Positions 10,882 through 62,802 of a DNA stretch of 64,000 nucleotides are shown one piece after another; position 1 is the first letter of the stretch; each line of letters opens with the position of its first letter. The stretch covers positions 79,128 to 143,127 of the forward strand of contig CAJWPC010000001.1 in assembly GCA_913045225.1 (NCBI GenBank). Reading direction: 5' to 3'. A model generated the notes under the pieces. The model was not told the origin of the DNA and did no database searches. It saw nothing but the letters and a program-made list of their open reading frames with translations. Made by a program: the position numbers and the translations under genes. Source of the DNA: an uncultured Rhodobiaceae bacterium. GTDB taxonomy: Bacteria; Pseudomonadota; Alphaproteobacteria; Rhizobiales; TMED25.

Positions 10882-11856
10882 TTAATTGCCTCTATTATGC
10901 GGTTGAGTAAAATCAAATGCGGGTCCAGCTGCAACGACACCACTTGGATTTATTGTTTCATGACTGCCATAGTAATGGAGCTTACTGTACTCGTCATCGT
11001 AAGTATCAGAAATACCAGGATATTGATATAACTCTTTCGCATAATTGAACAGATTATCGTACTCCTTGATTTTTTTCTTATTACATTTAAAGTGTCCGTG
11101 ATAGACGCTATCGAATCTCAATAGTGTTGGCAATAACCTCCAGTCAGATTCTGTTATTTCATCGCCGATTAAATATTTTTGGTGGGACAATATACCATCT
11201 AACTTATCTAATCCGAGAAAAAGTGTTTCAATTGCTTCATTGTATGCTTCTTGAGTTGTTGCGAATCCAGATCTGTAAACACCATTATTTATATTTTGAT
11301 AAATATAGTCATTCATGTCGTCTATCGCAGTTCTTTTTGCTTCGGGATAATAATTACCAGGATTTGCTCCAATATCATCAAATTCTGAATTAAACATTCT
11401 AATTATATCAGCTGATTCATTGTTAACTATGGTTGATGTTTTTTTATCCCAAAGCAAGGGAACAGTTACTCTACCTGAATAGTTTTGGTCTTCTTTTAGA
11501 TATACCTCATATAAATATTTTTTATTATTCACACTATCTGCAATAACACCCTGTCCATCATCAAATGTCCATCCATGTGAACGCATTATGGCATTGACGA
11601 CAGAGATTGAAATTATATCCTCTAATCCCTTAATAGCTCGAAAAATCAGGGTTCTGTGAGCCCATGGACAAGCCCAGGATACATAAAGATGATATCTATC
11701 TTTTTCTGCTTTAAAACCATCTTTGCCCGACGGCCCTGCTGCACCATCTTTTGTTATCCAATTTCGATAAATTGATGGCTTGCGCACATAACGACCTTTT
11801 GTCTCCTTCGTGTTATGCCATTGATCGATCCATTTACCATTCTCTAATCTGCCCAT
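10882..11856 (-). CDS. yqjG: Glutathionyl-hydroquinone reductase / omega-like GST (YqjG/ECM4 family)
   Basis: YVSWACPWAHRT, RVTVPLLWD, VNNESADI, INNGVY, YYGSH..INP. Confidence 0.9.
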   Translation of the reverse strand: MGRLENGKWIDQWHNTKETKGRYVRKPSIYRNWITKDGAAGPSGKDGFKAEKDRYHLYVSWACPWAHRTLIFRAIKGLEDIISISVVNAIMRSHGWTFDDGQGVIADSVNNKKYLYEVYLKEDQNYSGRVTVPLLWDKKTSTIVNNESADIIRMFNSEFDDIGANPGNYYPEAKRTAIDDMNDYIYQNINNGVYRSGFATTQEAYNEAIETLFLGLDKLDGILSHQKYLIGDEITESDWRLLPTLLRFDSVYHGHFKCNKKKIKEYDNLFNYAKELYQYPGISDTYDDEYSKLHYYGSHETINPSGVVAAGPAFDFTQPHNRGN

Positions 11857-48848: not shown

Positions 48849-48925
48849 GGGCGATTAGCTCAGTTGGTTAGAGCCCTCCGCTCATAACGGAGTGGTCCCA
48901 GGTTCGAGTCCTGGATCGCCCACCA
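48849..48925 (+). tRNA. tRNA with CAT anticodon, most likely tRNA-Ile2 (lysidine)
   Basis: Acceptor GGGCGAT/ATCGCCC, D arm AGCTCAGTTGGTTAGAG, anticodon arm CTCCG-CTCATAA-CGGAG, T arm GGTTCGAGTCC, encoded CCA. Lacks the fMet GGG/CCC stem; sits downstream of rpoD like E. coli ileX. Confidence 0.93.
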
Positions 48926-49053: not shown

Positions 49054-49470
49054 ATGATTGAAAATTTTAATGGTATATTTTTCCTAGTGACACATATTCT
49101 TGTTCTGATAATGATAAGTTTTTATCTTATTCGTATCATATTTGCACCAAGTGGTATTGCTGAAGAGTTTGGTGTGGATAAATCAGGAATTTATATTACA
49201 AGAATATTGGGGACGTTTGTTGCGCCGTTGTTTATTATTGGCGTTTACATCATATTTAGAGACGGTGGACCGACTGGCTGTTGGATCTGGTATGTTACTT
49301 TAGCAACAACATCAATTCTTCAACTTAGTTATGAAAGTTCCTTTTATTTTAAGAAAATTGATACTGCTATTGGTGCAAAAAATAAGTTACTCGATGTGAT
49401 CGTATCCGCTATTTTTACGATAATATCAGTTGTCCTCATTCTGGGTTTATCAGATAAAATATATTTATAG
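49054..49470 (+). CDS. Hypothetical 4-TM membrane protein
   Basis: Strong AAGGAG RBS; four hydrophobic segments; family not recognised. Confidence 0.75.
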   Translation: MIENFNGIFFLVTHILVLIMISFYLIRIIFAPSGIAEEFGVDKSGIYITRILGTFVAPLFIIGVYIIFRDGGPTGCWIWYVTLATTSILQLSYESSFYFKKIDTAIGAKNKLLDVIVSAIFTIISVVLILGLSDKIYL

Positions 49471-49508
49471 TATTTCCTATTTTTTTTCACAAATGAGATT
49501 GCATTAGT

Positions 49509-49564
49509 CTCTATTTCTGTGTTAAATAGAGTGATTATTAAAACATTACATCAGTATTGTAATG
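49509..49564. promoter_or_regulatory. Two tandem inverted repeats, candidate operators of the M24 operon
   Basis: CTCTATTT-N7-AAATAGAG (49509-49531) and CATTACA-N7-TGTAATG (49544-49564). Confidence 0.5.
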
Positions 49565-49595: not shown

Positions 49596-50942
49596 ATGAA
49601 ACCAGTGGATCCTACTAAGGGTTATGAGCTAGATACTAGCTTTATTCAAGAGCAGCACCATACAAATCCGAGAAGACTATACAGTCAAACTGGTGCAGAT
49701 TGGCAATATCGTGTTGATCACGAAAGACTAAGAAGGCAGAGATTAGAGCGAATTAGAGCCGAAATGGAAGCGGATGATCTGGGAGCGCTTGTTGTGTTTC
49801 AAGGCGCTAATGTACGATATATAACAGGTTCCTACCAAGGAAATTGGAAATATAACATTAACATTAGGTATGCTGTGCTACCTCGTGGCGGCGATCCAGT
49901 CCTGTTTGAAACAGCTGGTTCGGATATGAGAAATGCTCACTTAGACCTACCTTGGTTGGGTGAAGAAAATATTAGACCCGCTATGACATGGCAGTGGGCT
50001 GAAGGTGCTGTTGGTGAAATGGCTGACAAAATGGTCGCAACCGTAAAGCAAGTTTTAGTTGATAACGGTGTTGACAAAGAAAAGATTGGTGTTGACCAGT
50101 TAGATATGCCTGCACTTCATGCAATGGAAAAAGCTGGCATTAAAATTGTAAATGGCTGGCCAGCAATGTCACGTGCAAGAGTTGTGAAAACAATAGACGA
50201 AATCGAGCATTTAAAGATGTCATCATCAATTGGTGATGCGGCAATGTGGCATGTTAAGCATGAGTGGTTAAAACCAGGTATAACAGAACGTCAAATCGAA
50301 GCAAAAGTACACGACTTTATGCTGTCACGTGGATGTGAAATTATTTATGACATCATTGTTGCGTCCGGTGGTAATACAAGCCCATACAGAAGATGGGCAA
50401 CTGACAAACTGATTCAACAAGGCGATCTACTAATTGTTGATATTAACGCAGTTGGCCCCGGTGGTTACTTTATTGACTATGTTCGAACATTCAAATGTGG
50501 CTCGAAAATGAGTCAGCAAGAAATTGACCTATATCGTGAAACATATGACTCAATGTATGCAGGGCTAGAAAACCTTAGACCTGGAAAAACTTCAGCAGAT
50601 GTTGTATCAAAATTCCCAGAGTATGATGATGATAAGTACGGTACTGTCACACTTCAACAGTTTGCTCACTCAATAGGTATCACACTATATGAAGGGATGT
50701 GGATGAGTAGGGCTTACTCACTAAAATATCCTGCGGAAATAAAGGAAAATATGTATTTTGCTATTGAGACTTTTGCTGGACATCCAGGCCTTCCTCAAAC
50801 TTGTAGGTTAGAGGAAAATGTTCTGGTCACAAAAGATGGACCATCTGTATTTACTAAAATGGAGCATATGGAAGAGGCCGTCGCGGGATACAGACCAGGC
50901 GAATTCCATCATGCAGAGATTTTTGGATACCCTCAAAAATAA
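49596..50942 (+). CDS. M24B-fold metalloenzyme (Xaa-Pro peptidase family, DddP-like architecture)
   Basis: Creatinase-N domain (NVRYITG), RVVKT.DEI; metal ligands D (VDINA), D (FIDYVRT), H (FAHSIG), E (FAIET), E (RLEEN). Confidence 0.9.
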   Translation: MKPVDPTKGYELDTSFIQEQHHTNPRRLYSQTGADWQYRVDHERLRRQRLERIRAEMEADDLGALVVFQGANVRYITGSYQGNWKYNINIRYAVLPRGGDPVLFETAGSDMRNAHLDLPWLGEENIRPAMTWQWAEGAVGEMADKMVATVKQVLVDNGVDKEKIGVDQLDMPALHAMEKAGIKIVNGWPAMSRARVVKTIDEIEHLKMSSSIGDAAMWHVKHEWLKPGITERQIEAKVHDFMLSRGCEIIYDIIVASGGNTSPYRRWATDKLIQQGDLLIVDINAVGPGGYFIDYVRTFKCGSKMSQQEIDLYRETYDSMYAGLENLRPGKTSADVVSKFPEYDDDKYGTVTLQQFAHSIGITLYEGMWMSRAYSLKYPAEIKENMYFAIETFAGHPGLPQTCRLEENVLVTKDGPSVFTKMEHMEEAVAGYRPGEFHHAEIFGYPQK

Positions 50943-50952
50943 ATATAATATA

Positions 50953-50980
50953 AACCTCGGGGCTTTACTGCCTCGAGGTT
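50953..50980 (+). other. Intercistronic 11-bp RNA hairpin
   Basis: AACCTCGGGGC-tttact-GCCTCGAGGTT (one G-U pair); no U tail on the + strand. Confidence 0.7.
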
Positions 50981-51034
50981 CACACCATATAAAGGCAAAC
51001 TTTTGTGTATTATAAGTTTGAAAAAAATCGCTCA

Positions 51035-51820
51035 ATGATTTTTAATCCATTAATAATTGTTGCGTCTGAACTCGGTATAAGAGATTTATCATCAGAGCCT
51101 CCAAAGCCTAAAGAACAAGTCAAGGCAATGGTTACTGCTTTTCGAAAAGTCAATGACTCAGGTATTGGTAGTGTAATAGTTGATGGTGTATCAGACGAAC
51201 AAGTGACCGAGCTCGAGGGAAATGGAGCTTACACTGTTAAAACTGATATGTCTGAATTTGGAAAAGACCACAATTATCGTTCGAAATCGGGGGCTGAACG
51301 CATAGCGGCAACAGTTAATAAATTTGATCGATATTACACACATGATATTGTTGTAGCTGTGCCTGATGATATGCCCGAGCTAAAGCCATATTATATGCAA
51401 GCACTCATGTATGCACTTTCAGATAGTGATGTCGGTATTGCTACAATGGTCTCGCCGTTAACTGATGAAGAGCGATATGATAATGAAGTGGTCAAGGCAA
51501 GGGTTGATTGGAACTCTGACAGAATCGTCTATCCTTTAGAAGGATCAAAAGTCGGCACTTTAAAGGATATTAGGAGAAATATTGATGACTTTGATACTGA
51601 CGATGTATATAAGCTTGTTCCCATACATGCGTGGAGGAGGGGTCCATTAGATAAACTAATTGAGCTGCCACCATCAGACCGTGAATTTGAAGAAGGAACG
51701 GACCTTGTTCGAGCCTTAGATGCTGGCATGAGGATTGATGTCACATTTGTAACTGACAATATGAAGGTATTGATTACACCAGAAGAATTAGATGAAGCCG
51801 CATATGAAATTGAAGGATAG
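51035..51820 (+). CDS. KdsB (CMP-Kdo synthetase)-like protein with degenerate active site
   Basis: SGAERI, DIVVAVPDDMP, GIATMV, EVVKA, AWRRGPL, LPPS..E, RALDAGMRIDV and ITPEEL follow the alphaproteobacterial KdsB scaffold; start reassigned to ATG 51035. Confidence 0.8.
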   Translation: MIFNPLIIVASELGIRDLSSEPPKPKEQVKAMVTAFRKVNDSGIGSVIVDGVSDEQVTELEGNGAYTVKTDMSEFGKDHNYRSKSGAERIAATVNKFDRYYTHDIVVAVPDDMPELKPYYMQALMYALSDSDVGIATMVSPLTDEERYDNEVVKARVDWNSDRIVYPLEGSKVGTLKDIRRNIDDFDTDDVYKLVPIHAWRRGPLDKLIELPPSDREFEEGTDLVRALDAGMRIDVTFVTDNMKVLITPEELDEAAYEIEG

Positions 51821-51846
51821 TCTGTTGCTTCAAAATGAGGTTTAAA

Positions 51847-53115
51847 ATGAATAGACCATACTACAAGCCAGATCCTGTTGGGGGGGCAGAACAATATGTT
51901 GGTGCTGAACATAAACTTAATGAGCCATGGGAGGAACAAGCCCATAATGTAAAATTAGTTGGGCATTCAGATCTAAATGGCTGGGGTGACGCCTTCCAGA
52001 TACAGGTATCAAATGGAATATGTTATGTTGCAGCTTCAGGAATTAATGGTCATAATGGCATGACAATTCTTGATGTCAAAGATCCGTCAAAGCCGAAAAT
52101 ATTAAATCAAATATCAGACTCGCCTGGTGCAAGAACCCATAAGGTTCTCAGAATTAGTGATGATGTATTAATTACAAATTCAGAGCTGAGGCCTAATCTA
52201 GTTGGTCAATATCCAGAACTAAAAGGTGGATTAAGAGTTTTTGATATATCAGATCCTATTAATCCAAAGTTTATTAGACACGTTGAAGTAGATAGTTTTG
52301 GTATACATAGACCGATCTATGATAGGGATAGAAAATTGATGTATAGTTCTGGTTTTAAAGACGGTTATAATGGAAAAATACTGCTTATTCATGATATGAA
52401 AGATCCATCAAATCCTCGTTTTATTGGTCATGGTTGGGTTGAGGGTCAAAAAGAAGGCGAAGAGTATTCATGGGATAACTCAATAGTTAAAAACGAAGCT
52501 TGGTGCCACGAAGGAAATCCATGGGGTAATTTCGTTACCGCCGGATGGTGGGATGGGGGTATTGTTTTATTTGATTGTACGGATCCATCAAAACCAGAAT
52601 TTAAGTGGAGACATAACCCTCATGAAACCCATGGTTGGCCGGGAAACTATCATAGTTTTCTTGTGCCAAAAGGCTCTGAATTTGGAATTGTCACTCAAGA
52701 AACTATAACTGTCAACTGTGAACACCCGCCAGCATTTATTACATTCTACGATTTAAGAAATAGAGATGTCCCTCTTCCAGTAAGTACATATATGCCATTT
52801 GATATAGATCCATATGAGATGAGACCATTAGACTCTAAATGGGGGCAGACAGGATCAAGGCATGGCGCTCATAATATATGGTTGGATATGGAAAAAAATG
52901 ATCTTATCTACATTGCTTGGTTTAATGCTGGGTTAAGAATCATTGACTGGAGCAATCCATTTAGCCCCAAAGAAGTTGGATCTTATATCCCAGCAGGAAA
53001 TAGAGAACGATGCTGTCCACAAAGTAACGATGTTTATGTTGATCGTGAAACCGGACTTATATATATGTCTGATCGATGGGGATTAGGTCTGCATATTCTC
53101 GAATATACAGGTTAA
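51847..53115 (+). CDS. LVIVD-repeat beta-propeller protein, cytoplasmic
   Basis: Repeats LDVKDPSKP, FDISDPINP, HDMKDPSNP, FDCTDPSKP, YDLRNRDVP, IDWSNPFSP; no signal peptide; start ATG 51847 or 51835. Confidence 0.85.
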   Translation: MNRPYYKPDPVGGAEQYVGAEHKLNEPWEEQAHNVKLVGHSDLNGWGDAFQIQVSNGICYVAASGINGHNGMTILDVKDPSKPKILNQISDSPGARTHKVLRISDDVLITNSELRPNLVGQYPELKGGLRVFDISDPINPKFIRHVEVDSFGIHRPIYDRDRKLMYSSGFKDGYNGKILLIHDMKDPSNPRFIGHGWVEGQKEGEEYSWDNSIVKNEAWCHEGNPWGNFVTAGWWDGGIVLFDCTDPSKPEFKWRHNPHETHGWPGNYHSFLVPKGSEFGIVTQETITVNCEHPPAFITFYDLRNRDVPLPVSTYMPFDIDPYEMRPLDSKWGQTGSRHGAHNIWLDMEKNDLIYIAWFNAGLRIIDWSNPFSPKEVGSYIPAGNRERCCPQSNDVYVDRETGLIYMSDRWGLGLHILEYTG

Positions 53116-53120
53116 ATTAT

Positions 53121-54308
53121 ATGAAAAAACCTTTAGAAGGTATTAGGGTAATTGAGTTTGGCAACTTTATTGCTGGACCTTTCTGCGGAATGTTGCTTGC
53201 AGATATGGGAGCAGAAGTAATAAAAATTGAGCCTCTGTCAGGTGACTTGGCCCGAGCTATACCACCAATAATTGATGGTAAAAGTGCTGCATTTATGACT
53301 CTAAATAGGAATAAAAAAAGTCTAGCAATAGATTTAAAGTCGAACCATGGTAGGTCTCTTACGCTTGAGATATGCAAATCAGCAAATGTCATAATTGAGA
53401 ACAATAGACCAGGTGTGATGCAAAGACTGGGTTTGGGTGAAGAGGAAGTAAAAAAAATAAATAATAAAATTGTTTATACATCTGTATCTGGTTTTGGACA
53501 AACAGGTGAATTAAAAAATAGAGCGGGGATAAATCTTATTATTGAAGCATTATCTGGAACGTTGTCCGTAATGGGTGAGAAAGGCGAAATTCCCCCAAGG
53601 CCCGGCTTGCAAACCGCAGACATTCTTGGTGCAATGTTTGCAACCTATTCAACTTTAGCTGGATTAATTGGACAGATTCAACACAATCAAGGTATGCATG
53701 CAGATGTAGCTCTAATCGAGGCATCCATCGCCTCTGCTGTATGGGAAACAACAGAATACTTATCGAGTGGTATCGTTCCAGAACAATTAGGGCATTCACA
53801 CCGAGCAAGTGCACCATATCAATTATTTGAAACAAATGATAAAAGGTATATTGCAATAGGCGCGCCGAGTGACGCACATTTTAAGAGATTGATGAACATA
53901 CTAGATCTAAATGATTTATGTGAAAATCCGAAATTTACTTCATATTCCAGTAGAAAAGAAAATGAAAACGATCTTGTCCCAGTTGTTGCAGAAAAAATAA
54001 TGGATTGGGACTCATCAAATTTAGAAATTAAATTGACAGAAGCTGGTATACCATGCGGCTGTGTAAGAAATTACAAAGAAGCTCTAAATAATCCTCATAG
54101 CATCGAAAGGCAGCTGGTAAAGGAAATAAGTGATGGTCAAGGTTCTAAAATTAAGACAATACGTAATCCAGTCTTAATTAATAAAAAACCAATAAGAATT
54201 GATAACCTTGCTCCAGAATTAGGTCAGCACAGCTTTGAAATTTTAAATGAAGTTGGTATTGATAAAAATGCGTTCAGCAAACTTGTCAGTGATGGGATTA
54301 CTATCTAG
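53121..54308 (+). CDS. Class III CoA-transferase (CaiB/BaiF family)
   Basis: AGPFCGMLLADMGAEVIKIEP, NRNKKS..DLK, ENNRPG, catalytic Asp in ADILGA, APELGQH; start reassigned to ATG 53121. Confidence 0.94.
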   Translation: MKKPLEGIRVIEFGNFIAGPFCGMLLADMGAEVIKIEPLSGDLARAIPPIIDGKSAAFMTLNRNKKSLAIDLKSNHGRSLTLEICKSANVIIENNRPGVMQRLGLGEEEVKKINNKIVYTSVSGFGQTGELKNRAGINLIIEALSGTLSVMGEKGEIPPRPGLQTADILGAMFATYSTLAGLIGQIQHNQGMHADVALIEASIASAVWETTEYLSSGIVPEQLGHSHRASAPYQLFETNDKRYIAIGAPSDAHFKRLMNILDLNDLCENPKFTSYSSRKENENDLVPVVAEKIMDWDSSNLEIKLTEAGIPCGCVRNYKEALNNPHSIERQLVKEISDGQGSKIKTIRNPVLINKKPIRIDNLAPELGQHSFEILNEVGIDKNAFSKLVSDGITI

Positions 54309-55356
54309 TTTTTACTTTTTCTATTATTGCATTTGTCATATCAATTGTAGAAGATTTTCCTCCAATATCTGCTGTTAGGTATTTTCTTTCTTTGATTACT
54401 TCTGATGTTGACTCCTCAATAATATTTGAAGCCATAATTAATTTTTCCTCATTATATTTAGAGCCCATCCATGATAACAGCATTGATGTTGACATAATCA
54501 TGGCATATGGGTTCGCAACATTTTTTCCTGCAATATCCGGCGCAGAACCATGCGTTGCTTGAGCCATTGCAATATTTTCTCCAAGACAGAGACCAGGCGC
54601 CATGCCAATTGAACCAATTAAACCTGCTCCAATATCACTTAATATATCGCCGAATTGATTTGTTGTTACAACAACATCAAATGACTCAGGATTTGAGACT
54701 AGGTGCATAGCAGTTGTATCAATTAGTGTATCCTCATAAGAGATTGAAGGATATTCCTTTGAAACTTTTACGCATTCCTCCAAGAACATTCCACAACTTA
54801 ATCTAAATAGGGGTTCTTTATGTGCTGCTGTAACTTTGGATCTATTTTTGCTTATAGCCAAATCAAAGGCAGCTTTAGCTACTCGATTAGAACCTTTTCT
54901 TGTAATAACCCTTGATGCGATAGTGATATCATCGTTTGGACGAAATTCAGGGTATCCTCCAACAATTGTGTCTGAACTCTGCAGACCTTCAGTTAATTCT
55001 CTGACGAAAATGATATCTATATTCTTCGAATTATCATATGACTTCGCAGGTCTTACCGCAGCATATAATTCAAATTTTTTTCTAATAGGGGGCATTTTCC
55101 ACGTCGAGTCATTTCGGGGATAATTATTATGCCCAATAGGGCCACAAATTATTCCATGGACTTCATTTAATTGAGATACTGTGTATTCAGGAAAGGTATC
55201 GCCGTACTTACTATGTGCTAAATTTCCAATGGGTAAGTCAATTAGTTCAATATCATACCCAAGGGTCTTTAGTGCTTCAGTTAATACCAACTTTGCCATT
55301 GGGACAATTTCTATACCAATATCATCACCGTTCATAATTGCAATTTTTAGCTTCAT
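54301..55356 (-). CDS. Isocitrate/isopropylmalate/tartrate dehydrogenase family (beta-decarboxylating dehydrogenase)
   Basis: GDDIGIEIV, VRELTEG, NQFGDILSD, ATHGSAPDIAGK..ANP, TADIGG. Confidence 0.92.
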   Translation of the reverse strand: MKLKIAIMNGDDIGIEIVPMAKLVLTEALKTLGYDIELIDLPIGNLAHSKYGDTFPEYTVSQLNEVHGIICGPIGHNNYPRNDSTWKMPPIRKKFELYAAVRPAKSYDNSKNIDIIFVRELTEGLQSSDTIVGGYPEFRPNDDITIASRVITRKGSNRVAKAAFDLAISKNRSKVTAAHKEPLFRLSCGMFLEECVKVSKEYPSISYEDTLIDTTAMHLVSNPESFDVVVTTNQFGDILSDIGAGLIGSIGMAPGLCLGENIAMAQATHGSAPDIAGKNVANPYAMIMSTSMLLSWMGSKYNEEKLIMASNIIEESTSEVIKERKYLTADIGGKSSTIDMTNAIIEKVKTR

Positions 55357-57105: not shown

Positions 57106-58029
57106 ATGAAATCAAATCAAATAGTTTTGCTTGATGGGGGAATTGGCCAGGAGATATACAAAAGAGCTGGATCACCCGAATCAAAAACGCTCTGGTCTTT
57201 ACAGATCATGCGAGATAATCCAGATATTGTAGTTGGCGTACATAAGGATTTTATAAATGCAGGATCAAAAGTTTTAAGCTTAAATAATTATGCTGCAACC
57301 CCATCAAGATTAGAGAGAGTTGGTATGCGAGACAGTTTTGATGAAATCCACTCTTTGTCCATCCAGTTGTTGAATACCGCAATTTCTGAATCAAAGTATA
57401 CTAGATCAGATTTGTCCATCGCTGGTTGCTTGCCGCCACTTATCGCTAGTTATACAGCTGAGGATAGTAGAGGCAATAAGGAACTTTTTGACGAGTATAT
57501 TCTTTTAATTGAACAGCAAATTGATGATGTCGATTTATTTCTGGTGGAGACAATGTCTAGCATCAAAGAGATAATTGTTGTCACCGATGCTCTTGATCAT
57601 TTTGGACTGGGTAAGTATGTTAGTCTCACGTTAGATGATGATTATCCCAATTTGCTCAGATCTGGTGAAAATTTGGTAGATGCGATTAAATTATTGGAAA
57701 TGAAATCCGCAGACGCAATTTTATTAAATTGCTCCTGTCCAGAAACAATATCCTCAGCGTTAACTAAATTTAAAAATATTGACATACCCTTTGGTGCTTA
57801 CGCAAATGGTTTCTCTTCTGTCAAAGATTTGAAATTTGGAAAAAGTGTAAATGTATTGGAGGCAAGAAATGACCTCGGTCCGGATGAATATTTAAAATTT
57901 GTGATGGATTGGATCAGTAAAGGTGCAAGAATAATTGGTGGCTGTTGTGAGATTGGTCCAAAGCACATCAATAGAGTTTCAGATCAGTTACACCTTAATG
58001 GCTACACAACCATGAAGCTTAGATTATAA
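57106..58029 (+). CDS. Homocysteine S-methyltransferase family protein
   Basis: LLDGGIG.E, VHKDFI.AG, ETMS, Zn ligands LNC and GGCC. Confidence 0.9.
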   Translation: MKSNQIVLLDGGIGQEIYKRAGSPESKTLWSLQIMRDNPDIVVGVHKDFINAGSKVLSLNNYAATPSRLERVGMRDSFDEIHSLSIQLLNTAISESKYTRSDLSIAGCLPPLIASYTAEDSRGNKELFDEYILLIEQQIDDVDLFLVETMSSIKEIIVVTDALDHFGLGKYVSLTLDDDYPNLLRSGENLVDAIKLLEMKSADAILLNCSCPETISSALTKFKNIDIPFGAYANGFSSVKDLKFGKSVNVLEARNDLGPDEYLKFVMDWISKGARIIGGCCEIGPKHINRVSDQLHLNGYTTMKLRL

Positions 58030-61000
58030 CTTATTTTTTTTACCGTATCCTCCACCTGAAGGAGTAGTGATCATCAGCTGATCTCCGATGGCTAATTCTA
58101 TTTGGCAATTTCCTTCTATCTCTATTGCCACATTGTTTCTTATTATTGTGTTTGACCCCAGCTTCCCCGGCTCACCTCCACAAAGACCAAATGGCTGTTC
58201 TTTCCTGTTATTTGATAACAGAGAACAACTCATATTATCACAAATGAAGAATATTTTTTTTAAACCACGGCCACCTGCAAATTTACTATTATATTGTTTC
58301 CCCTCAACTAGGGATATTTCTGAGAGAATAATTGGGTATTCTTCCTCAAAAATTTCAGGATCGGTAGATCTTGAATTTGTCATATTTGTCTGTATCGCAT
58401 CACAACCATTATGATTTTTCCCTGCTCCCTGACCTCCGCATACAGTTTCATAATATTGAAATTTGTCATTACCAAAAATGATATTGTTCATTGTAGATTG
58501 ACAAGATGCTTTGATGGAGAGCGCACCAAAAATACAATTTGCAAGAGCTTGGCTCACTTCAACATTTCCCGCTGAGACGGCCGCATTTTTTGAGGGATTT
58601 ATTATAGAGTTGCTGTCCGTAGATATTTCTACAGGTTCAAGGATTCCTGAATTTAGAGGAATATCCTCATTAATTAAACATCTTAAGACATAAATTATGA
58701 CAGCTTTTGTGATTGGAAGCGGCGCATTAAAATTATCTGAACTTTCTCCACTTGATCCAGTGAAGTCAAAGTTAATCTTTTTACCATCAGAGCATGTATT
58801 TATTCTTAATTTGAGATAAAAATTATCAAGTGTCATATCAAAGCTTGATGCTTTAATATTTTTCAATATCCCGAGACATGCCTCTTTTGCATTCTCTTGT
58901 ATTGCAAACATTTGTTTAAGAACAACCTCTAATCCATAGTAGTCAATGATTTTACGCAATTGTATCTCACCAATTTTATTTGCTGCTGCTTGAGCTGTAA
59001 TGTCTTGTATGTTGAGCTCTGGATTTCTCGCTGGATATTTACCACTATTTAATTTTTTTTGTAATCGTTCGTGTTTCGTAAGATCATTCATCCGAATTTT
59101 AAAATTATCAAATATAATACCTTCATCATCCAATTTTTTTGCTTCGGGAGTCATAGATCCAGGATAAATTCCACCAATATCAGGGTGATGACCCCGCGTG
59201 GCCAAGTAAAAAATTATATCATTGGTTTTATCAGAAAAGATAGGGGAAATAATAGTAATATCAGGCAAATGCGTTCCTCCAGAACTAGGTGAGTTATTTA
59301 TAAATATATCCCCCCTGTTTACAGATTGATTTTTCTTGATAAGCCCTTTTACGCAATCATCCATAGATCCGAGATGTACTGGTATATGAGGTGCATTCGC
59401 AACAAGATTACCGATATTATCAAATAGAGCACACGAGTAATCAAGCCGCTCTTTTATATTTATAGAGGCCGCAGTCCTTTGTAGTGTTTCCCCCATTGTT
59501 TCTGCTACTGACATAAAAAGGTTGTTAAAAATCTCCAACATTATTGGTGACTCATCAGCTTTTCTATGAGTTTTTGATGTTTTTATTTTTTTTATTAGAA
59601 TATTGCCTGATTGGTCCCTAGTTGCTTGCCATCCCTCTTCTACGATTATTGTTGAGTGATCATCAATCAGAATTGCTGGCCCTGTAAGTTTGAAGTCATA
59701 GAATTTTTCTATTCGACACACAATTGCCTTAACCCATTTTCCTTTACTATAGAAATTTTCATAATCAATCTTATTTTCAGTATTTATTTTTTTTATGGGC
59801 AGTTCGATTTTATTATATCGAGGAGTTGTTTCAACTTGGATCATATCAAGTATAATTTTTCTATTTAGATTATAGCCGTATATCTTTTTATGAATTTTCC
59901 TAAAATTTTTGATTAAATCTTCACACTTAATATTTGATTTTTTTTCTTTTATGCAAATACTTTGATCGGTACCCTTGTACTTCAAATAAAATAAATTTAA
60001 ATGAGATACAGTCATGGATTTGGTGTTAGCTAGGTTTTCTTTTTGTAATTTTTTTATAAGAGCATCAATTTTATTTCTATATTTTTTATCAAATTCAAAA
60101 AAAGTACTCTCTTGTTTAATATACTTCTCTCCAGATTGAGCCATACCATATGCCGATAAAAAACTTGATAGTGGATTAATAATAACTGTTTTGATCTCAA
60201 GGTTCTCAGCAATCTGGCAAGCGTGTTGGCCACCAGCCCCCCCATAACTCACGAGCGCATGCTCTTCCAAGTGCAGACCTTTCCTTGTGGCAATTTTTCT
60301 TATTACTCTACACATTTTCTCAACTGCAATTTTTATAAACCCTTCAGCTACATCTTCTGGAAGCATTTTTGGATCTATATTATCTCTCAGTTGATTGAAT
60401 TCCTTAGATACAATTTGCTTATTCAGTGAGGATTTGCCGTCATGGCCAAACTTCTGTGGGAAATACTTTTCTATAATTTTGCCAAGAAATAGGTTTGCAT
60501 CTGTAAGTGTGAGGGGGCCATTTTTTCCATAAGACATTGGTCCGGGGTATGAACCCGCTGATTTTGGTCCAACGATCATCCTCGAGTTCCTATAGTCTAA
60601 AATTGAACCTCCACCAGAAGCAATTGTATCTATATCAATGATAGGTACCTGAAGTATTTGGTTATCGATCGTTTTCTCATTCTTGTACTCCAATTCACCC
60701 TCGAAATGTGAGACGTCTGTAGAAGTGCCACCCATATCAAAAGTTATAATTTTTTTAAAGCCTGAGTTTTTACCGACTGAGATTGCACCCATTACGCCCC
60801 CAGCTGGACCCGATAATATAGAATTTATACCTCGGAAGTTTTTTTCTTCTGCTAGGCCACCATTCGATTGCATGTATCTAAGACTAATATTATTCTTATT
60901 AAAATTTATTTCTTTTTTTAAATTATCAATATCGCTTCTGATAATAGGATCTACATAGGCATGAACAAGAGATGTATGGGTTCTTCGTATATATTTAATC

Positions 61001-61590
61001 GTTTTTGAAATTTCATGACCAAGTGTAACATTTTTGTGTCCAAGTTGATTTAATATACTTTGGATCTCAATTTCATAACTGGGAAATTTCCATCCATGAA
61101 TTAAGCTTACACAAATTGAATTATAATTCCCTATTTTTATTTGTTTTAATTGCTCCGTAATTGTTTTCCAATTTGGTTTTATGAAATCATTCCCACTATT
61201 TGTGAGACGGATGTCCAATTCTATTACTTTTGAATACAACGGGATTGGCCTTTTGATTTCTAGTGAAAATATATCTTCTCTACTTTGATAACCAATCTTT
61301 TGGCAGTCTCTAAAGCCTTTTGGAACAATTAAAAGTGTTTTTTCACCTGTTCTCTCCAAAAGAGTATTTGTAGCTTTCGTTGTTCCAACGGTTATATTCC
61401 CTATATTTTTAAGGTCTGCAGAGTTATCGGTTAAGATTTTTTTTATACCAGTTGAAACAGGGTCATCATTCTTGTTTTGAGACTGACTCAATACTTTTTC
61501 TAGAAATAGATTATTATTTGGGGAAAGGGCAATTACATCAGTAAATGTACCACCTTTATCTATCCAGAAATTCCAATTATTTTTTTCCAT
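58024..61590 (-). CDS. ATP-dependent 5-oxoprolinase / fused hydantoinase A-B family
   Basis: DKGGTFTD, SGPAGGV, DMGGTSTDV, NIKERLDYSCA, IPVHLGSM, GGTHLPD, YYET..GG.GA, TPSGGGYG. Confidence 0.93.
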   Translation of the reverse strand: MEKNNWNFWIDKGGTFTDVIALSPNNNLFLEKVLSQSQNKNDDPVSTGIKKILTDNSADLKNIGNITVGTTKATNTLLERTGEKTLLIVPKGFRDCQKIGYQSREDIFSLEIKRPIPLYSKVIELDIRLTNSGNDFIKPNWKTITEQLKQIKIGNYNSICVSLIHGWKFPSYEIEIQSILNQLGHKNVTLGHEISKTIKYIRRTHTSLVHAYVDPIIRSDIDNLKKEINFNKNNISLRYMQSNGGLAEEKNFRGINSILSGPAGGVMGAISVGKNSGFKKIITFDMGGTSTDVSHFEGELEYKNEKTIDNQILQVPIIDIDTIASGGGSILDYRNSRMIVGPKSAGSYPGPMSYGKNGPLTLTDANLFLGKIIEKYFPQKFGHDGKSSLNKQIVSKEFNQLRDNIDPKMLPEDVAEGFIKIAVEKMCRVIRKIATRKGLHLEEHALVSYGGAGGQHACQIAENLEIKTVIINPLSSFLSAYGMAQSGEKYIKQESTFFEFDKKYRNKIDALIKKLQKENLANTKSMTVSHLNLFYLKYKGTDQSICIKEKKSNIKCEDLIKNFRKIHKKIYGYNLNRKIILDMIQVETTPRYNKIELPIKKINTENKIDYENFYSKGKWVKAIVCRIEKFYDFKLTGPAILIDDHSTIIVEEGWQATRDQSGNILIKKIKTSKTHRKADESPIMLEIFNNLFMSVAETMGETLQRTAASINIKERLDYSCALFDNIGNLVANAPHIPVHLGSMDDCVKGLIKKNQSVNRGDIFINNSPSSGGTHLPDITIISPIFSDKTNDIIFYLATRGHHPDIGGIYPGSMTPEAKKLDDEGIIFDNFKIRMNDLTKHERLQKKLNSGKYPARNPELNIQDITAQAAANKIGEIQLRKIIDYYGLEVVLKQMFAIQENAKEACLGILKNIKASSFDMTLDNFYLKLRINTCSDGKKINFDFTGSSGESSDNFNAPLPITKAVIIYVLRCLINEDIPLNSGILEPVEISTDSNSIINPSKNAAVSAGNVEVSQALANCIFGALSIKASCQSTMNNIIFGNDKFQYYETVCGGQGAGKNHNGCDAIQTNMTNSRSTDPEIFEEEYPIILSEISLVEGKQYNSKFAGGRGLKKIFFICDNMSCSLLSNNRKEQPFGLCGGEPGKLGSNTIIRNNVAIEIEGNCQIELAIGDQLMITTPSGGGYGKKNKL

Positions 61591-62447: not shown

Positions 62448-62793
62448 ATGCTAGATGGCTGGATGATCGCTATTTATTAGAGGAAAGTCCGGGCTCCACA
62501 GAGGAACAGTGCCGGATAACATCCGGCGGGGGTGACCCTAGGGAAAGTGCAACAGAAAATATACCGCCATGATTAAATGGTAAGGGTGAAATGGTGTGGT
62601 AAGAGCACACCGCAATGGTGGTAACATCATTGGCAGTGTAAACCCCACTGGGAGCAAGACCAAATAGAGATGGAAATATGTCCTCTGCATTCTGCCATCT
62701 GGGTAGGTCGCTAGACTCAATGAGTAATCATAGAGCGAGATGAATGATCATCGTCAAATTGACACAGAACCCGGCTTATAGGCCATCTAGCAT
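62448..62793 (+). ncRNA. rnpB: RNase P RNA, bacterial type A
   Basis: GAGGAAAGTCCGGGCTCC, GGAAAGTGCAACAGAAA, GGTAAGGGTGAAA, GGAGCAAG, ACAGAACCCGGCTTA; P1 ATGCTAGATGGC/GCCATCTAGCAT; P2 GATGATC/GATCATC. Confidence 0.97.
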
Positions 62794-62802
62794 TAGAATT
62801 TG

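Follow-up and report, generated by a model that had tools for sequence, protein, structure and literature searches.

An M24-fold protein and its KdsB-like neighbour form a conserved gene pair in a probably mosaic locus of an OCS116-cluster alphaproteobacterium

In this work we have analyzed a stretch of alphaproteobacterial DNA of 64,000 nucleotides (contig CAJWPC010000001.1, positions 79,128 to 143,127; hereafter the window, with coordinates counted from its first nucleotide) in which five adjacent genes encode an M24-fold protein, a protein resembling the CMP-Kdo synthetase KdsB (Kdo, 3-deoxy-D-manno-octulosonate), an LVIVD propeller, a class III coenzyme A (CoA)-transferase and a dehydrogenase of the Iso_dh family. 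These genes had been put forward in a preliminary description as one novel catabolic system. The results presented here favour another reading, to which we assign a probability of about 0.65: the locus is a mosaic, in which a pair formed by the M24 and KdsB-like genes lies beside unrelated genes, and not a five-gene pathway. The pair itself is real, conserved and previously undescribed, since in 54 of 86 M24 loci (the sample used for the co-occurrence statistics, with the KdsB-like gene located by profile search) the KdsB-like gene follows M24 directly on the same strand. By tblastn over the same loci, CoA-transferase and Iso_dh genes are found near M24 only in the OCS116/Rhodobiaceae lineage, where the housekeeping genes rpoD, on the upstream side, and mlaC and mlaA, on the downstream side, are equally syntenic; outside this lineage, therefore, the five genes do not occur as a set. 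The case shows that a pathway cannot be read from close spacing and lasting synteny alone when genomes are streamlined.

The features of the locus are as follows.

49596-50942, + strand: M24 gene, 448 aa, with Pfam M24 and Creatinase_N domains
51005/51035-51820, + strand: KdsB-like gene (open reading frame 2, ORF2), 271 aa from GTG 51005 or 261 aa from ATG 51035
51835/51847-53115, + strand: LVIVD propeller gene, Pfam LVIVD, product cytoplasmic with no signal peptide seen
53121-54308, + strand: class III (CaiB/BaiF) CoA-transferase gene, Pfam CoA_transf_3, full length
54301-55356, - strand: Iso_dh-family dehydrogenase gene, Pfam Iso_dh, product lacking the catalytic Tyr (Q126)
49491 to 49527, + strand: promoter-like element upstream of M24, conserved in eight OCS116-lineage loci
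50953 to 50980, + strand: stem-loop of 11 bp downstream of the M24 stop codon, minimum free energy -21.2 kcal/mol, z = -5.6
49054-49470, + strand: ORF for a predicted multi-pass membrane protein of 138 aa, given for context and lying outside the conserved pair
48849-48925: tRNA-Met, the single tRNA near the cluster

The 54 loci with the pair comprise all those of the Hyphomicrobiales, Hyphomonadaceae and Rhodobacteraceae, most of those of the Rhodospirillales, a betaproteobacterium and the Rariloculaceae, so that the pair spans Alpha-, Beta- and Gammaproteobacteria. The KdsB-like gene is absent beside M24 in one clade of the Rhodospirillaceae and in the deltaproteobacterial, acidobacterial and Chloroflexi loci; one acidobacterial locus (L089; L numbers designate individual loci) had been taken for a carrier through a clustering mislabel, which the profile search overturned. 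The pairwise identities of the two proteins are correlated (r = 0.81); M24 identity stays at 76% or above across the pair loci and that of the partner falls to 26%.

For 18 other lineages 138 neighbours of the pair were compared; four is the highest count reached by any Pfam family, and the families listed include neither CoA_transf_3 nor Iso_dh. In some Rhodospirillaceae the pair is flanked by genes for an acyl-CoA dehydrogenase and an enoyl-CoA hydratase. Where M24 lacks the partner, its neighbours encode short-chain dehydrogenases/reductases (SDR, 15), cupins (12), HMGL-like proteins (9), major facilitator superfamily transporters, zinc-dependent alcohol dehydrogenases and GFO/IDH/MocA oxidoreductases, and carboxylate transporters of the TRAP and TctC types recur near M24. 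The setting of the M24 gene is the catabolism of small oxygenated acids, from which no single pathway emerges. Directly upstream of M24, a stand-alone CobW_C-domain protein devoid of the GTPase domain is encoded in 15 loci (L002, 9364-9987; L039, 9421-9990; L040, 9357-9902; and 12 more), which belong to the Rhodospirillales, a betaproteobacterium and the Rariloculaceae.

The M24 protein is built of an N-terminal extension, a Creatinase_N domain and a pita-bread domain (PF00557, 109 bits against a cut-off of 23). All five canonical metal ligands (D282, D294, H358, E391 and E406) are invariant in 74 distinct sequences, and by its pita-bread domain and its D, D, H, E, E binuclear-metal ligand set the protein belongs to the clan MG fold. 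As many as 225 of its 448 positions do not vary in these sequences. None of the NCBIfam cut-offs is reached, the best model being that of DddP (NF043017, 122.5 bits against 600), which is also the closest match in the PDB (E 8e-24, about 25% identity). Since the metal ligands have been kept and the residues characteristic of DddP and of the peptidases have been lost, the M24 protein is a metal enzyme, neither DddP nor a typical Xaa-Pro peptidase. Its earlier description as a non-standard member of the fold was correct, although it is only the second-shell and catalytic positions that differ from those of both groups.

Relatives of the M24 protein at 75-100% identity have been found in approximately 312 stretches of species-representative genomes. 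The family extends over the Alpha-, Beta-, Gamma- and Deltaproteobacteria, the Acidobacteria and the Anaerolineae (Chloroflexi), it includes bacteria from anaerobic, soil and groundwater settings, and it has been retained in the genomes of about 1.4 Mb of the marine OCS116 clade. A search of plasmids returned a single informative match, an archaeal copy 60% identical on plasmid CP050017 of Haloarcula sp. JP-L23 (L099, 8953-10299), adjoined by genes for an SDR, subunits of the xanthine dehydrogenase family, an amidohydrolase and a cyclase; the other plasmid matches were distant relatives at 31-33%.

The KdsB-like protein shows weak homology to KdsB over nearly its full length (best NCBIfam score 89 bits against 281; PDB match at E 6e-7) and no Pfam match to CTP_transf_3 at E 0.01. 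In the alignment with canonical alphaproteobacterial KdsB, IVASELGI and a variable stretch after it take the place of the N-terminal nucleotide-binding motif IPARxxSxRLPxKPL. In Aquifex KdsB, D95 and D219 are the two strictly conserved Mg-binding Asp residues (PMC3149649). In the KdsB-like proteins Ile, Phe or Met stands at the equivalent of D219, which is the Asp in the VDT motif of KdsB, the region of Aquifex Lys19 (K19) is variable or deleted, and the equivalent of D95 (D122) is kept in most members and replaced by His in the Rariloculaceae. The 51 KdsB-like orthologues share invariant polar residues of their own (HNY, FDR, HD, R173, R212, D216 and RE..E), which argues against simple decay. 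With the cytidylyltransferase catalytic residues lost and the equivalog cut-offs missed, the designation KdsB pseudoenzyme, already used in the preliminary description, is upheld, and the protein is predicted not to be a functional CMP-Kdo synthetase.

The KdsB-like family is small, comprising 14 clusters at E <= 1e-30 in a profile search of 1.84 billion representatives, and none of its representatives in this search was part of a gene fusion of the Rosetta stone type. The AlphaFold2 model of the protein, with a predicted local distance difference test (pLDDT) score of 52, was unusable. The gene probably starts at GTG 51005, which leaves a gap of 62 nt to M24: over the ten codons preceding the ATG the amino acids are conserved in a distant Rhodobacteraceae orthologue and the third-base changes are synonymous, which makes the GTG the more likely start. 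A Shine-Dalgarno sequence as the cause of the conserved 'NRS' before the ATG was rejected, since AGGAG is missing from the DNA and only synonymous changes occur there. The canonical KdsB motifs are also lacking in a group of relatives at 47-50% identity to the KdsB-like protein (L007-L011, 8001-8792); this sister group is found in a conserved argG-X-rmuC-def-fmt-truA context, with M24 absent nearby.

The promoter-like element upstream of M24 (49491-49527) consists of AAATGAGATTGCAT, 13 nt and TGTGTTAAAT; in it a -35-like TTGCAT is separated by 17 nt from an extended -10-like TGTG-TTAAAT, with AAATGAGA further upstream. It is kept in all eight OCS116-lineage loci compared, the divergent L003 and L032 included, amid a variable AT-rich spacer, and it would act as a promoter. 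A scan with consensus promoters and terminators was uninformative, the counts being equal to the shuffled expectation, and an inverted repeat resembling a Zur box, ACATTAC-N9-GTAATGA, which lies a short way upstream of M24, was dropped as not conserved in the relatives. The stem-loop between M24 and the KdsB-like gene (50953-50980) is terminator- or attenuator-like and has no U tract. Stem-loops in this intergenic region occur in four lineages, with z-scores of -5.6 in the window, -7.9 in L003 (about 11349-11387), -8.9 in L029 (about 11340-11395) and a weaker -2.6 in L001, and are conserved by position, not by sequence; the hairpin of L029 has a U tract, which makes it a full intrinsic terminator. 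A search with Rfam gathering thresholds for riboswitches and leader RNAs in the window and seven diverse loci detected tRNAs and RNase P RNA only.

Gene content, residue conservation and co-occurrence statistics are what has been shown here; we infer that the M24 protein most likely hydrolyses, by means of a binuclear metal centre, a small metabolite which is not a peptide and which probably bears a carboxylate. The KdsB-like protein would most likely be an accessory, maturation or regulatory factor present in sub-stoichiometric amounts, produced at a lower level than M24 by read-through of the hairpin that follows the M24 gene. Any specific accessory role for it is tentative and falls somewhat short of even odds. 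The CobW_C gene that joins the pair upstream in other lineages points to the assembly of a metal centre. Together, the hairpin, the promoter-like element and the CobW_C gene suggest an abundant catalytic protein accompanied by a lower-level accessory factor, with a link to the metal centre possible.

The two genes at the distal end of the cluster are best understood apart from the pair. The CoA-transferase matches CoA_transf_3 with 366 bits over model positions 1-366 of 366, reaches no NCBIfam equivalog at cut-off, and has as its best PDB matches the formyl-CoA transferase entry 10UH, SUGCT (9BR7) and YfdE. The dehydrogenase likewise reaches no NCBIfam cut-off and is about equally similar to NAD-dependent isocitrate dehydrogenase (NAD-IDH), archaeal isopropylmalate dehydrogenase (IPMDH) and homoisocitrate dehydrogenase. 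Its sequence VRELTEGLQ stands against VRENTEGxY in the family, and each of three independent structure alignments places Gln126 where the RENTEG-x-Y motif has its catalytic Tyr, a loss which the preliminary description had missed. The 18 close orthologues, which are 54-95% identical, all have Gln or Leu at this position; that of Syntrophus, at 54%, is one of them, and a relative 39% identical (L029) keeps the Tyr. In the beta-decarboxylating dehydrogenases Lys and Tyr form an acid-base pair, a role reportedly described by Aktas and Cook in 2009, whose work is cited in PMC12427979.

In a reciprocal metagenome scan the Tyr-less dehydrogenase subfamily, which includes soil and freshwater relatives, was found in 79 loci at 69-91% identity, 39 of them at least 6 kb long. 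An M24 gene of the window family was found near the dehydrogenase in none of these 39, the Syntrophus-type contigs stopping short of the expected M24 position. In 30 loci the gene next to the dehydrogenase on the upstream side is TctC 16 times, and the gene next to it on the downstream side is acyl-CoA-dehydrogenase-like 11 times; genes for SDR, PrpD and phosphoenolpyruvate mutase/isocitrate lyase-type proteins recur as well; a family III CoA-transferase gene lies 4-8 kb away in 5/39 loci. In the window the dehydrogenase gene is co-directional with mlaC and mlaA and convergent with the CoA-transferase gene. The CoA-transferase and the Tyr-less dehydrogenase would belong to di- or tricarboxylic-acid metabolism and stand beside M24 only through lineage-specific synteny.

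The LVIVD protein matches PF08309 with 60 bits against 20. Its AlphaFold2 model (pLDDT 91.9) is an all-beta, seven-bladed propeller of about 28 strands, for which the top Foldseek match is the phosphotriesterase of Sphingobium TCM1 (Sb-PTE, 5HRM; E 1e-18, template modelling (TM) score 0.67); by sequence the two proteins match at E 5e-7. In the family H154, H269, H342, E285, D183 and D302 are invariant, and H40 and H98 are nearly so. The conserved histidines of the His-ringed propeller announced earlier thus exist, but their 'remodelling' could not be upheld, since there is no reference site to remodel from. The wider claim of active-site remodelling in three proteins of the cluster stands in part: it is borne out for the KdsB-like protein, whose catalytic residues are lost, and in M24, which keeps its five metal ligands, it is limited to second-shell and catalytic positions.

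The LVIVD gene is present in two of the four clades of the OCS116 lineage and absent from L021, L023, L003-6 and L032-33. Orthologues 56-77% identical occur in Ancylobacter, Mesorhizobium and Nitrospinaceae, in contexts that vary from a Zur/CobW cluster in Ancylobacter through Ldh_2 with glycolate-oxidase-like genes to an ABC transporter with a metallo-beta-lactamase-fold gene, and no M24 gene was seen beside the orthologue in any of the contexts examined outside the OCS116 lineage. In Ancylobacter mangrovi (L092, 4996-13430) the orthologue, 75% identical, lies amid genes for two Fur-family regulators and three CobW proteins and genes of the FolE, HisI, CysS and ThrS types, a gene set which is the signature of a zinc-limitation cluster. 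The LVIVD gene appears as an independent, highly conserved gene, probably encoding a metal-dependent hydrolase with a fold akin to that of the Sphingobium phosphotriesterase, and situated between the KdsB-like and CoA-transferase genes only in part of the OCS116 lineage.

Several observations weigh against the preferred reading. ORF2, the LVIVD gene and the CoA-transferase gene are tightly packed (gaps of 14-26 nt and 5 nt), so that their co-transcription in this organism is probable, and the block of M24, ORF2, CoA-transferase and Iso_dh genes persists across clades whose RpoD proteins are only 72% identical. In Syntrophus sp. L085 (254-11638) the M24 family and the Tyr-less dehydrogenase subfamily (54% identical) have been joined independently in an eleven-gene cluster on one strand, which encodes in order an atypical Iso_dh enzyme, a second M24 protein, a cupin, a second Iso_dh enzyme, a 2-hydroxyacid dehydrogenase, a GntR regulator, HIBADH-like and HbpS-like proteins, the window-type M24 protein, an HMGL-like protein and an FAD oxidase. 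In the acidobacterial locus L089 a secreted, distant LVIVD homologue (28% identical) is encoded directly upstream of M24. The M24 protein is, moreover, equally conserved in the absence of the KdsB-like partner; only two positions distinguish the two sets, so an obligate complex is unlikely, and group-specific M24 residues were dropped as a signal of an interface.

All but the last of these points, together with the acyl-CoA dehydrogenase and enoyl-CoA hydratase genes that flank the pair in some Rhodospirillaceae, would suit a lineage-specific catabolic operon of OCS116, much like the one imagined in the preliminary description, where the propeller, CoA-transferase and dehydrogenase genes have been added to the pair for the breakdown of a single small metabolite that contains an acid group. 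Tight spacing, the persistence of the block at 72% RpoD identity and the Syntrophus cluster keep such a pathway alive, but we regard it as unlikely. The housekeeping genes on both sides are as syntenic as the block, CoA_transf_3 and Iso_dh are not enriched in the 18 other lineages, a hairpin follows M24, the dehydrogenase gene is oriented against the others and shares its direction with mlaA and mlaC, and the LVIVD orthologues have unrelated neighbours. Co-occurrence, on which the five-gene proposal had been made to depend in advance, fails beyond one lineage, the reciprocal scan with the dehydrogenase was negative, with the M24 family absent from the 39 loci, and the LVIVD gene is confined to half of the clades; the five-gene system has therefore been abandoned here as a general unit.

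Two further explanations were weighed. It might be that M24 and its partner and, as a case apart, the LVIVD protein are served by metallochaperones of the COG0523 type or act as low-zinc substitutes, and that they are produced under metal scarcity. The CobW_C genes directly upstream of M24 in 15 loci and the position of the Ancylobacter orthologue within a Fur-family/CobW/FolE/HisI/CysS/ThrS-type cluster fit this idea, as do the Zur-regulated operons of znuCBA, COG0523 and a 'WD40' propeller published for the Bradyrhizobiaceae (PMC2770081), where the propeller might be of the LVIVD type. In the window, however, no CobW, Zur or znu gene lies close to the locus, the relatives do not share the inverted repeat that precedes M24, and four other LVIVD contexts contain no metal genes. 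We regard such a module as very unlikely. The published link of COG0523 with a 'creatinase' was considered as a further argument and rejected, since that protein is COG1402, not M24 (PMC2770081). Less probable still is an ordinary housekeeping locus with a divergent CMP-Kdo synthetase and a prolidase or aminopeptidase. The source-database names 'CMP-KDO synthetase' and 'Xaa-Pro aminopeptidase', the intact metal ligands of M24, the housekeeping surroundings and the failure to find a second kdsB within the 64-kb window would agree with it; the lost KdsB catalytic residues, the invariant Tyr in place of the peptidase-type His in M24 and the wide margins by which all NCBIfam cut-offs for peptidases and KdsB are missed would not. 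Nor would it account for the tie of the KdsB-like gene to M24 in large genomes of 2.5-6 Mb too, or for the rarity of the M24 family, which of 185,579 species genomes only about 300 carry.

With the mosaic as the preferred explanation, interest centres on the M24 family, which for an accessory enzyme is under unusual constraint: between the Alphaproteobacteria at one end and the Acidobacteria and Chloroflexi at the other, half of its residues do not vary, and it has neither a curated model nor an assigned function despite its retention in streamlined marine genomes. Identification of its substrate could bring to light a metabolite flux which current models lack, and the KdsB-like partner may be a new case in which a nucleotidyltransferase fold has been put to use in an accessory factor. 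A bolder proposal, which we consider decidedly speculative and rather improbable, is that M24, its KdsB-like partner and, in other lineages, the stand-alone CobW_C protein constitute a new kind of maturation-dependent metalloenzyme acting on an unrecognised, widely available metabolite, which in OCS116 and Syntrophus would feed a new acid-catabolic route through a Tyr-less Iso_dh enzyme of altered chemistry.

The window derives from an OCS116-cluster alphaproteobacterium, and for M24 it matches single-cell and metagenome-assembled genomes of this cluster at 99-100% identity. When remeasured from the ATG starts used earlier, the gaps between the co-oriented genes are unchanged (92, 26 and 5 nt), as are the 8 nt by which the two convergent genes overlap. 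The cluster does not lie directly after a tRNA region, as had been stated: the ORF of the 138-aa membrane protein (49054-49470) intervenes and there is one tRNA-Met only. This ORF has no family match in Pfam or NCBIfam and is confined to the closest relatives (eight loci). The surroundings are of housekeeping character on both sides: upstream there are greA, carAB, yqeY, dnaG and rpoD, and downstream mlaC, mlaA, a homocysteine methyltransferase gene, a fused oxoprolinase-type gene, RNase P RNA and mraZ. The fused gene (58024-61590, - strand) is a single hydantoinase A/B gene of the oxoprolinase type encoding 1188 aa, and the RNase P RNA (62451-62794, + strand) is of the bacterial class A. Anti-phage defence was also considered and rejected, PADLOC giving 0 matches for the six proteins tested.

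Among known systems the M24 protein comes closest to DddP, the M24-fold dimethylsulfoniopropionate (DMSP) lyase (PDB 4RZY, 4S01, 4B28), with which it shares length, domain architecture and binuclear-metal ligands. Of the six invariant metal ligands of DddP (D295, D297, D307, H371, E406 and E421) five are kept, and D297, the one specific to DddP, is replaced by an invariant Asn (N284); the invariant catalytic candidates Tyr366 and Asp377 correspond to L353 and L364, both invariant as well. The M24 protein thus has neither the six ligands nor the catalytic pair nor an NF043017 score of at least 600, and the analogy with the DMSP lyase drawn in the preliminary description finds no support. The fold and the domain pair are also those of the Xaa-Pro dipeptidases, aminopeptidase P (M24B), creatinase and the ectoine hydrolase DoeA, none of which is known to have a dedicated KdsB-like neighbour. 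The five metal ligands of the Xaa-Pro peptidases correspond to those of M24. The second-shell His of the H..G...HE motif is typical of Xaa-Pro peptidases; unlike in the M24B peptidases, this His ('VHE') is replaced in M24 by an invariant Tyr365 (HSIGITLYE), and the PepQ, YpdF and PepP models give 46-81 bits against cut-offs of 393-630. DoeA is as remote (TIGR02993, 60.6 against 613), and creatinase, unlike M24, has no metal ligands.

The other proteins of the locus stand in a similar relation to their nearest counterparts. The KdsB-like protein retains the SGxxR motif of KdsB and its C-terminal PPSxRE..E and R.A.D.G.R motifs, and is set apart by an HNYR insertion and an FDR..HD motif which mark its family and which KdsB lacks. 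The LVIVD protein has a single specific structural relative, Sb-PTE (PDB 5HRM), which has a binuclear metal centre according to the title of a work cited in PMC11656708; both are seven-bladed propellers, with 17% identity and TM scores of 0.58-0.67, and the LVIVD protein is shorter and lacks a signal peptide. The dehydrogenase matches the Iso_dh model over its full length; it has the Lys (AAHKEP) of NAD-IDH, IPMDH and homoisocitrate dehydrogenase as well as their metal-binding Asp and their Arg residues, and its substrate loop, NDSTWKMPPIR, is unlike that of IDH and IPMDH. SUGCT and YfdE, which are among the structures nearest to the CoA-transferase, are class III enzymes acting on dicarboxylates, and it is to enzymes of this dicarboxylate type that the CoA-transferase, as judged from its sequence, appears to be closest.

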